Shown piece by piece: positions 9,519 through 10,481 of a DNA stretch of 64,000 bases (positions within the stretch are counted from its first letter, which is position 1; every line of letters starts with the position of its first letter). The stretch is taken from assembly GCA_965219325.1 (NCBI GenBank), contig OZ244723.1, positions 1,981,803 to 2,045,802 on the forward strand, given 5' to 3'. The DNA comes from Dehalococcoidia bacterium (lineage in GTDB: Bacteria; Chloroflexota; Dehalococcoidia; Lucifugimonadales; UBA2962). The position numbers and the translations under genes were made by a program. The notes beneath the pieces are model-generated. The model was not told where the DNA came from. It was given only the letters and a program-made list of their open reading frames with translations, and did no database searches.

Positions 9519-10255
9519 ATTGGGTGGGGACGGCGCCGCCAATGGCCGGACTGCTCCGGCTGGTCTGCGCCATCCCCCCCACCGAACCGGACGTGCGACT
9601 TTCACCGCATCCGGCTCTCCACCAGATGGGCTGGACCAAGGTCGGGAACATCGGCTTTTCCGTCATCGCAGTCGGGTGCATACATCCCTTCTCCGGCGTA
9701 GTTCGCTTCGTTCCACACCCATCTGACTGCCCACCTTCGCCATGTGGACGGCTTTCCCGTCCGCGGACTACTACGCGGGCTCTGCCACCCGTCCAGCATT
9801 GGCCGAAGGCTGGCCTGTTCCGTCGCCGGAGAGCCGGACGAGCTTCCCAAGTTCACAAAGGTTGCGTCTTCATATCGCCTTAGGTCCTGCCTCTACGCCT
9901 GGCCTGGCTCTCTGCCGCGCTCGTCATCGGAGGATGCCGGTCAGAGGGAGTACGGCATCCCTGCCCTGACAGGGCTATCTCTGCAGCTGGAAGACAGAGA
10001 CTCCGATGACTCCACCCTCGCCCTACCGTAAGCGGGTGGTTACATTTACGACGCTTCAAACAGCAGTTCCTTTCGTGACCGTAACGACACTCTGGCTAGC
10101 AGTGCGCGGCCTGGCAGGGTGGCCGCCGCCACATTGTCGGGAAGGCTTCAGACACGGTTCTGCCTCTGGTCCCCATGCCTGCTTCCCTGGCCACCGGCCC
10201 ACTCCTGGCCGGGATCCCCATCGGGAACGTTCAACCTGTGCGCTTCTTGGCGCAC
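9519..10255 (-). ncRNA. ORF-less group II intron (complete ribozyme, ~737 nt)
   Basis: 5' GTGCG at 10255; DIII-like gggaaagccgtccacatggcgaagg; ~100-nt DIV closed by cagatggg/cccatctg; DV gagccggatgcggtgaaagtcgcacgtccggttc; DVI with bulged A; ends cccaAT at 9519; EBS1/EBS2 match the upstream flank. Confidence 0.9.
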
Positions 10256-10481
10256 TCCAGCCGGTATGTTAGTACGCCGGACCTGTGTAAGGGTGAATGA
10301 CTCCGAGGAATAGCCGCACCTTTAGGCTGCAGGATGCGGCGTTATGCTTGAGCAGGCCCGCGGCGTCTCGACGTGGCGGAAATGGCGGCCATCGGCCTGA
10401 TTTCAGGCCCGTTCTCCCGAATACTCTGCCGGAAATGGTCACGGAGCAGTCACTCACGCTGTGTGCCAGTCAAGGAGAGAA

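Follow-up and report, generated by a model that had tools for sequence, protein, structure and literature searches.

The window analysed in this work is a stretch of 64,000 nt from the genome of a Dehalococcoidia bacterium (GenBank assembly GCA_965219325.1, contig OZ244723.1, positions 1,981,803 to 2,045,802), which is assembled as a single 3.25-Mb contig rated 96.7% complete. Between two divergent genes coding for EEP (Exo_endo_phos) proteins, the minus strand of the window (10255..9519) harbors a complete group II intron of 737 nt, which lacks an open reading frame (ORF) for an intron-encoded protein (IEP). A preliminary description of the locus had claimed such an intron, had considered it matched to its present site, and had proposed that it still splices or moves with the aid of an IEP acting in trans. 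According to our analysis, the element is a real, structurally intact ORF-less group II intron; it belongs to a family of similarly shortened copies and resides in a genome whose assembly lacks an intact IEP.

The intron begins with GTGCG and ends with ...CCCACCCAAT; its termini (GUGCG at 10255..10251 and AAU at 9521..9519) are those expected of a group II intron. In the 28 family copies described below, the 5′ end is always kept (28/28), and a few copies differ in the final dinucleotide (AT, CT, AG). The Rfam family RF00029 (Intron_gpII), representing domains V and VI (DV and DVI), matched 9619..9519 over the full model (1–77) with 64.4 bits (E-value 2.3e-10; gathering score 40 bits) and is the sole Rfam family above threshold within the window. 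Both domains have the form known from group II introns, with the bulged A at 9525 lying 7 nt from the intron 3′ end. Furthermore, the intron is more stable than dinucleotide shuffles (minimum free energy (MFE) z-score of −3.07).

A consensus fold computed with RNAalifold from 12 family copies gave a six-domain layout (Table 1), including the folded domain I (DI) that the preliminary description presupposed. The fold contains 226 pairs, with 97.5% of the cells paired. Two-sided changes occur in 32 of the 226 pairs, against 16.1 ± 2.3 in column shuffles (none of 500 reached 32), a count to be read bearing in mind that the fold was predicted from the same alignment on which it was tested; when partners were slid by one to three columns as a control, only 4–10 pairs showed two-sided changes. 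The window copy has five mispairs out of 226, about as many as the best-kept copies (decayed copies have 19–23), and four private substitutions, two of which break pairs. Catalytic self-splicing with lariat formation is, for the window intron, a predicted capacity.

The exon-binding sites (EBSs) and their exon partners, the intron-binding sites (IBSs), were assigned by an unbiased scan: for each exon position, the best-pairing variable column of the alignment was sought, ignoring the earlier proposal. The 28 copies represent 25 distinct combinations of EBS and site, whose pairing was compared with 5000 shuffles. Exon positions −1 to −6 retrieved intron positions 265–270 as best or second-best covarying columns; these correspond to the EBS1 of the preliminary description (TCCAGC at 9991..9986, in the loop of a tctctg/cagaga hairpin), whose complement GCTGGA lies at 10261..10256. 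Here 140 of 150 cells are paired (91 after shuffling), and the hairpin stem shows three compensatory pairs. Exon positions −11, −13, and −14 retrieved intron positions 211, 213, and 214, and pairing at EBS2 (positions 211–214) amounts to 74 of 100 cells (43 after shuffling). The first base of the 3′ exon retrieved position 363 (EBS3), which is paired in 25/25 combinations, compared with 11.7 after shuffling. For none of the three elements did any of the 5000 shuffles match the observed value. A register table widens the pairings to positions 265–271 with exon −1 to −7 and positions 210–214 with exon −10 to −14. The column adjacent to EBS1, where a delta nucleotide of IIA style would lie, is absent from the scan output for exon +1. 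Since EBS1/IBS1 and EBS2/IBS2 are both present and EBS3 lies in the coordination loop, an internal loop of DI, the intron is of subgroup IIB.

As for EBS2, the preliminary description had pointed to a CGGTA loop matching TACCG in the 5′ exon. The two strings are complementary in their letters, but CGGTA is the same in every family copy despite differing exons, and 55 of 125 cells are paired, which is the chance level; the match in the window exon is therefore a coincidence, and the covarying EBS2 lies at 10046..10042. At the window insertion site (ACAU-N3-GGCUGGA/U, the slash marking the insertion point), the intron pairs in 7/7 positions at EBS1 (one G.U) and in 4/5 at EBS2 (with ACAU of the exon), and forms a G.U pair at EBS3. 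The window copy thus fits its present site at all three EBS elements, as previously claimed, on corrected grounds.

Table 1. Coordinates of the intron, its domains, its exon-binding elements, and the neighboring features in the window (a slash marks the intron insertion point).
Feature	Coordinates	Strand	Basis or remark
Complete ORF-less IIB-type intron, 737 nt	9519..10255	-	Ends, Rfam, consensus fold, MFE z-score
Domain I (contains EBS1, EBS2, and EBS3)	9847..10255	-	Consensus fold mapped to the window
Domain II	9784..9846	-	Consensus fold
Domain III	9729..9780	-	Consensus fold
Domain IV, 107 nt, scar of the ORF deletion	9621..9727	-	Common junction in ORF-less copies; comparison with parent
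Remnant of the first 12 IEP codons, MHPTAMTEKPMF	9646..9681	-	Aligns to the parent start MNPTKMAEKQRF
Domain V: AGC triad, 2-nt bulge, GAAA loop	9584..9617	-	Rfam alignment; three compensatory pairs in the family
Domain VI, unusually long; bulged branch-point A at 9525	9522..9580	-	Rfam, consensus fold
EBS1, UCCAGCU, intron 265-271, loop of hairpin 10000..9978	9985..9991	-	Scan and shuffles; 271/-7 from the register table
EBS2, AAUGU, intron 210-214	10042..10046	-	Covaries with exon -10 to -14
EBS3, G, intron 363, unpaired in DI internal loop (helices 13/14)	9893	-	Covariation with exon +1
CGGTA, formerly proposed as EBS2, intron 228-232, loop of conserved hairpin 10039..10012	10024..10028	-	Not an exon-binding site
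5′-exon target	10256..10269	-	IBS1 10256..10262 (-1 to -7); IBS2 10265..10269 (-10 to -14)
IBS3, first base of the 3′ exon, T	9518	-	Pairs with EBS3
Expected ligated-exon junction: ...CCGGCUGGA/UAGCAUUUU (UAGCAUU...)			
Uninterrupted (empty) site: ...ACCGGCTGGA/TAGCATT...			
EEP (Exo_endo_phos) gene, 274 aa, GTG start 33 nt past the intron	8661..9485	-	Intron in its 5′ leader if co-transcribed
Divergent upstream EEP-like paralogue, 286 aa	10461..11321	+	
3′ fragment (DIV to DVI, no ORF) of a divergent related ORF-less intron	58015..58195	+	77% identity to positions 532-736; RF00029 38.9 bits, below cut-off

The relatives of the window intron were searched at the DNA level in 80 related genomes. 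Eight other genomes harbor full-length, equally short copies with 82–92% identity, up to five per genome, and the family as a whole comprises at least 28 full-length ORF-less copies with one common ORF deletion in domain IV (DIV), from about 17 Dehalococcoidia metagenome-assembled genomes (MAGs) falling in different GTDB families. Probing one genome per species (185,579 genomes) with the deletion-junction pattern retrieved 31 matches at 29 loci, all in MAGs named 'Dehalococcoidia bacterium', and one contig alone carries at least eleven matches to this pattern.

Longer siblings of 2.4–2.7 kb harbor an ORF of 570 aa between intron positions 610 and 627. RVT_1, GIIM, and HNH domains are present in this parent IEP, which is also recognized by TIGR04416, the model of group II reverse transcriptase (RT)/maturases; among proteins of the PDB, TeI4h (6me0, E 6.5e-57), LtrA, a 427-aa group II RT/maturase (7uim), and GsI-IIC are about equally similar to it (E from 1e-53 to 1e-57). 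Its HNH domain and the IIB features would be compatible with either CL or class B. Most of the ORF-containing parents (L049 990–1243, and at the same place L050–L055 and L057) have an extra 255–350 nt in the domain II hairpin, between intron positions 433 and 434; this insert is absent from the parent G078 and from all ORF-less copies.

The DIV of the window copy, previously given as about 100 nt and measuring 107 nt (9727..9621), was compared with that of the parent G078:C1:1518989-1521380, whose ORF has its stop codon three bases ahead of DV. The ORF-less copies share an identical deletion junction and retain the first 12 and the last ~3 IEP codons. The preliminary description had recognized an IEP remnant in DIV, translated as MYAPD...LVESRMR. 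Such a remnant does exist, but the homologous one is MHPTAMTEKPMF, and its alignment to the parent start MNPTKMAEKQRF implies that MYAPD... was read one base (+1) out of the ancestral frame. The small conserved DIV hairpin containing these 12 codons is plausibly a candidate binding site for the IEP, by analogy with LtrA and DIVa. Maximum-likelihood analysis of the ribozyme parts split the 28 ORF-less sequences from the 8 that contain the ORF with 100/100 support and grouped the window copy with copies of two genomes of the same genus (G009 and G007). The shared breakpoint, the remnants of the ORF ends, and the separate clade, which are the marks of a TeI3-like family, demonstrate at the sequence level that the ORF-less family has a single origin by one deletion.

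Cognate ORF-containing siblings were found in 7 of the 16 related genomes checked. Full-length ORF-less copies occur in nine genomes, of which four contain the cognate IEP (including the same-genus G007) and five do not; in three of the nine (G000, i.e., the genome of the window, G009, and G063), no intact IEP was detected at the threshold used, and G000 has just a broken one. Moreover, copies of one clade are 99% identical at different sites in several MAGs. These data support the idea that the ORF-less family would depend on an IEP supplied in trans. The occurrence of such near-identical copies at different sites, together with sense, in-frame insertions (see below) in genomes also encoding the IEP, is an indirect sign of mobility or splicing in trans.

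Across the family, different EBS variants correspond to different targets. These include an insertion sequence (IS) transposase gene, interrupted at the motif WIKE/GK, a membrane-protein ORF, and a PAPS-reductase-like ORF, which is invaded in the sense orientation and in frame in three genomes also carrying the cognate IEP. The last interruption (...GRRQCTEHYKIR/PIQRKIRELLGL...) belongs to one subclade and was found at L023 (G055), L022 (G074), L024 (G032), L070, L074, L083, and L089; without the intron, the frame is open for up to 669 aa in MAGs of different GTDB families. This suggests that the interrupted gene is part of a shared mobile element and that the intron would need to splice there. 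The family also targets itself: intron positions 370/371, 413, and 526 serve as insertion points for further copies, giving nests of up to three elements (L084 2476–4692, L093 5373–6846, L073 6186–7664, and L045 516–1734). The EBSs of the abundant subclade (CUUCCUU / CCAUG) fit the intron's own junction between domain III and DIV (CAUGGCGAAGGAGG/G).

Regarding the habitat, one public run with a related sequence is labelled as a sponge metagenome. In four runs containing the organism at about 5–9x, the depth summed over the intron segments reaches hundreds to thousands; compared with the flanks, this implies that the family is abundant in that community. In runs X1–X5 and X11, aligned over window positions 9000–10800, the summed contig depth in the intron segments ranges from hundreds to about 16,000, against about 5–9 in the flanks. 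Run X11, flagged as 'RNA?', includes a 523-nt contig across the ORF-deletion junction of an ORF-less copy with about 96% identity.

We then checked the presence of a helper protein in the genome harboring the window. Probing it by tblastn with eight IEP variants did not retrieve anything beyond a partial match (35–40%) at 665.6 kb, where the only RVT_1 and the only GIIM Pfam hits of the genome are also located. This gene (C1:665403-666607; L014 3403–4607), placed directly downstream of groEL, is the sole RT-like gene and represents an unrelated IEP; it is broken, with an in-frame TAG and a deletion of RT motifs 4–7, and retains GIIM (78.5 bits). A weak DV match (37.6 bits) follows it. The search for a cognate RT/maturase that the preliminary description had recommended thus returned one broken, unrelated sequence, and an intact IEP is absent from the assembly. 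Unlike TeI3-like introns, the window copy is thus not accompanied in its genome by a related intron encoding an intact IEP. An independent intron of the C.te.I1 kind would be expected in a genome free of any IEP-related gene; here an intact IEP is lacking, but one degenerate GIIM-bearing IEP is present. Whether this broken gene could be a conserved maturase of the MatK type was also considered; no close homologue was found in 40 relatives, which speaks against a conserved maturase-only gene, and this candidate was rejected.

The genome contains other intron remains besides the 3′ fragment within the window (Table 1). At C1:791874-792240 lies the 3′ half (positions 373–737) of a sibling intron, which, with 94% identity, is the closest relative of the window copy; such a half copy points to an earlier multiplication in this lineage. 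It was not retained as a twintron remnant, since its truncation is due to an IS5-like element that entered at CTAA, with an IS110-like transposase ORF apparently in or beside the element. A second ORF-less intron, from another lineage and seemingly full-length (about 673 nt, starting with GTGCGCC, RF00029 57 bits), is located at C1:982019-982691. The G007a copy, a member of the window intron's family, has as its target a homologue of the DI sequence GCAGCATGTCGATAAAG/CGG of this second intron. A further copy with the EBSs of the window intron was not found in the genome.

The insertion site lies, as the preliminary description had approximately indicated (~35 nt), 33 nt before the GTG of the 274-aa EEP gene. 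The EEP genes are multi-copy in this genome, with four loci of the EEP240 type and about seven of the EEP274/EEP286 type (window 7241–11321 and elsewhere), and a paralogous module of EEP274 and EEP240 genes, 86% and 92% identical, respectively, lies at 1.688 Mb (C1:1687675-1689913). The idea that the intron and the EEP genes are functionally connected was discarded, since no EEP homologue occurs at the 70 other loci analysed (370 kb, mostly flanks of related introns and of intron fragments); the adjacency looks incidental as judged from these flanks.

In the same-genus genome G007, the locus corresponding to window 7034–10267 (G007:C1:2084847-2086300; L059) is conserved along the 5′ flank (85% identity) as far as the insertion point and then joins the homologue of window 7430->7034, the 3′ part of the third EEP gene. 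Therein 2.8 kb are lacking: the intron site, EEP274, a gene for a 3HCDH_N protein, and two-thirds of EEP240 from its 5′ side. What is left of EEP240 is interrupted by an in-frame TGA. The deletion spans a 12–13-nt microhomology, CATACCGG[A/C]TGG, whose left copy overlaps IBS2/IBS1. The G007 locus was rejected as an empty site because of this 2.8-kb deletion, which removes the site, so that G007 says nothing about its unoccupied state.

Taken together, the identity and structure of the intron, the origin of its family by a single deletion, the EBS/IBS assignments, and the lack of an intact IEP in the assembly are established by the data above. On this basis, we consider it probable that the window intron is a non-autonomous IIB copy that was inserted when a helper was present and is now orphaned; past trans-mobilization, present immobility, and poor splicing of this copy are what we infer for its history and current state. 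The preliminary proposal of an IEP acting in trans can accordingly be kept for the family, which has ORF-containing siblings in related genomes, but not for the host genome, where the cognate IEP is missing and continued movement by this route is unlikely.

The following history may be depicted. The family started with one deletion of about 1.66 kb within the DIV of an IEP-encoding intron of 2.4–2.7 kb. The resulting mini-intron may have spread in sponge-associated Dehalococcoidia via retrohoming and retrotransposition, using the protein of its siblings, while EBS1, EBS2, and EBS3 diversified, so that separate lineages would have hit separate sites (IS transposase genes, PAPS-reductase-like genes, introns). 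The window copy would have entered ACAU-N3-GGCUGGA/U by reverse splicing and target-primed reverse transcription when its lineage still had the helper, which would later have been lost from this genome; the same-genus G007 retains one. It would now be immobile, with a well-preserved ribozyme, and its splicing in vivo would be at best an inefficient self-catalysis. Being outside coding sequence, it would be tolerated in the intergenic leader. The near-perfect preservation of the copy fits a fairly recent loss of the helper, and the breaking of helices by two of its four private substitutions is what neutral drift would give.

Several observations weigh against this orphaned-copy interpretation. 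An empty-site allele was found neither in relatives nor elsewhere, so that insertion in situ is neither dated nor proved: a 32-nt joined-flank pattern did not retrieve the site from JGI metagenome contigs (a single 20-nt joined-flank match was rejected as chance, showing no further similarity to the window flanks); exact look-ups of both flanking EEP proteins gave no other contigs; and the intron-less joint was not found in the contigs of the four runs with the organism at about 5–9x, in which both exon–intron junctions are occupied. Hence, the intron-less allele proposed as a check in the preliminary description was not recovered. An RNA run of the organism was sought and none was identified, which leaves splicing as a prediction. 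In addition, the window copy is barely decayed, which would equally fit an ongoing selection for function, and a second full-length-looking ORF-less intron (C1:982019-982691) persists in the same IEP-free genome. The lack of a cognate IEP in five of the nine genomes with full-length copies points in the same direction, and in one genome (G073) the copies are 99% identical to each other without a cognate IEP, which hints at recent activity. Finally, plasmids or unbinned replicons could carry the IEP.

Some of these points would suit a different scenario, in which the intron splices without its own protein, like C.te.I1, or with the aid of the X-domain of the broken IEP or of a host factor, and is kept through its position in the EEP leader. 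The preserved structure in an IEP-free genome, the second full-length-looking ORF-less intron, the strong GIIM domain (78.5 bits) left in the broken IEP, and the published precedent of C.te.I1 (PMC4424553) speak for it. However, half of the four private substitutions disrupt helices, as under neutral drift; the broken IEP belongs to a different intron lineage and is without a close homologue in 40 relatives; an intergenic position does not need splicing; and the search for RNA runs of the organism yielded none. A scan of the leader found no sigma-70-like promoter, a weak test in a Chloroflexota genome. We thus regard this scenario as unlikely for the window copy. The broader form of it, i.e., that ORF-less introns persist in IEP-less Dehalococcoidia as functional splicing elements, independent of protein or dependent on host factors, has in our opinion a similarly small chance of being correct. 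If true, it would turn the single exception of C.te.I1 into a lineage-wide pattern and may imply cross-mobilization by distantly related IEPs.

It is very unlikely, instead, that the intron is still active in this cell in the sense of the preliminary description, splicing and possibly moving by means of an IEP from the same genome. The ribozyme is intact, its three EBS/IBS pairings fit, the family seems to work in this way in genomes with ORF-containing siblings, and an assembly that is 96.7% complete leaves room for extra replicons. Nevertheless, no cognate IEP was retrieved from the genome with any of the eight tblastn variants or by the genome search, the sole gene with RVT_1 and GIIM has an in-frame TAG and lacks RT4–7, and there is no second copy with the same EBSs. 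Lastly, the idea that the copy arrived together with its flanking DNA by horizontal transfer or recombination (e.g., between introns, with exon shuffling), the site match being that of the donor, is highly improbable: the rearrangement boundary in G007 does coincide with the 5′ edge of the intron, and exon shuffling through intron recombination has been described in Thermosynechococcus elongatus (PMC2882425), but the G007 junction is explained by a deletion at the CATACCGG[A/C]TGG microhomology leaving a truncated EEP pseudogene, the genome contains about 115 matches to the 13-mer (with at most two mismatches), the EEP genes on either side are native to the genus and multi-copy in it, and the intron clusters with same-genus copies.

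For the window, the orphaned-copy interpretation has limited practical consequences, the intron being a passenger of an intergenic leader. At the level of the family, one ORF-deletion derivative would have given rise to a multi-genome group with diversified targets, self-targeting nests, and stranded copies without a helper. Such a group represents a natural series for studying ribozyme integrity after protein loss, unaided splicing in vivo, and the movement of non-autonomous introns across species.

The closest analogue of this family is represented by the ORF-less TeI3 introns of T. elongatus, a cyanobacterium with 17 ORF-less introns of the TeI3/TeI4 group that stem from one deletion, form EBS-divergent families and twintrons, and use the IEP of siblings (Mohr, Ghanem & Lambowitz 2010, PMC2882425). 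In both cases the introns are of IIB type, go back to one deletion in the DIV of an ORF-containing ancestor, with the same breakpoints throughout, have lineages differing in EBS1/2/3 and targets, would receive the IEP in trans from ORF-containing siblings, and occupy IS elements and other introns as well as intergenic DNA and a few genes. TeI3 is found within one cyanobacterial genome; the present family, as deduced from sequence comparisons, is distributed over about 17 Dehalococcoidia MAGs of different GTDB families. Several of its host genomes (including that of the window) lack a cognate IEP, and its parent IEP is only moderately related to TeI4h (6me0, E 6.5e-57, no better than LtrA). Only the missing helper, a trait shared with several sister genomes, goes beyond the textbook picture.

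Indeed, bacterial ORF-less introns nearly always share their genome with a related IEP, the sole exception being C.te.I1 of Clostridium tetani (PMC4424553). Like C.te.I1, the window intron is ORF-less, looks intact, and has a host genome that lacks a functional IEP gene. C.te.I1, however, lies between ORFs, gives fusion proteins by alternative splicing, and self-splices robustly in vitro (PMC4424553), whereas the window copy is intergenic, has clear ORF-containing relatives in sister genomes, and is characterized through its sequence. As to the nests, nested ORF-less and RT-encoding introns have been reported in Methanosarcina acetivorans (Dai & Zimmerly 2003, cited through PMC4424553). The Dehalococcoidia family likewise homes repeatedly into related introns, with nests of up to three elements; it differs in its bacterial host and in that the window copy itself is un-nested.

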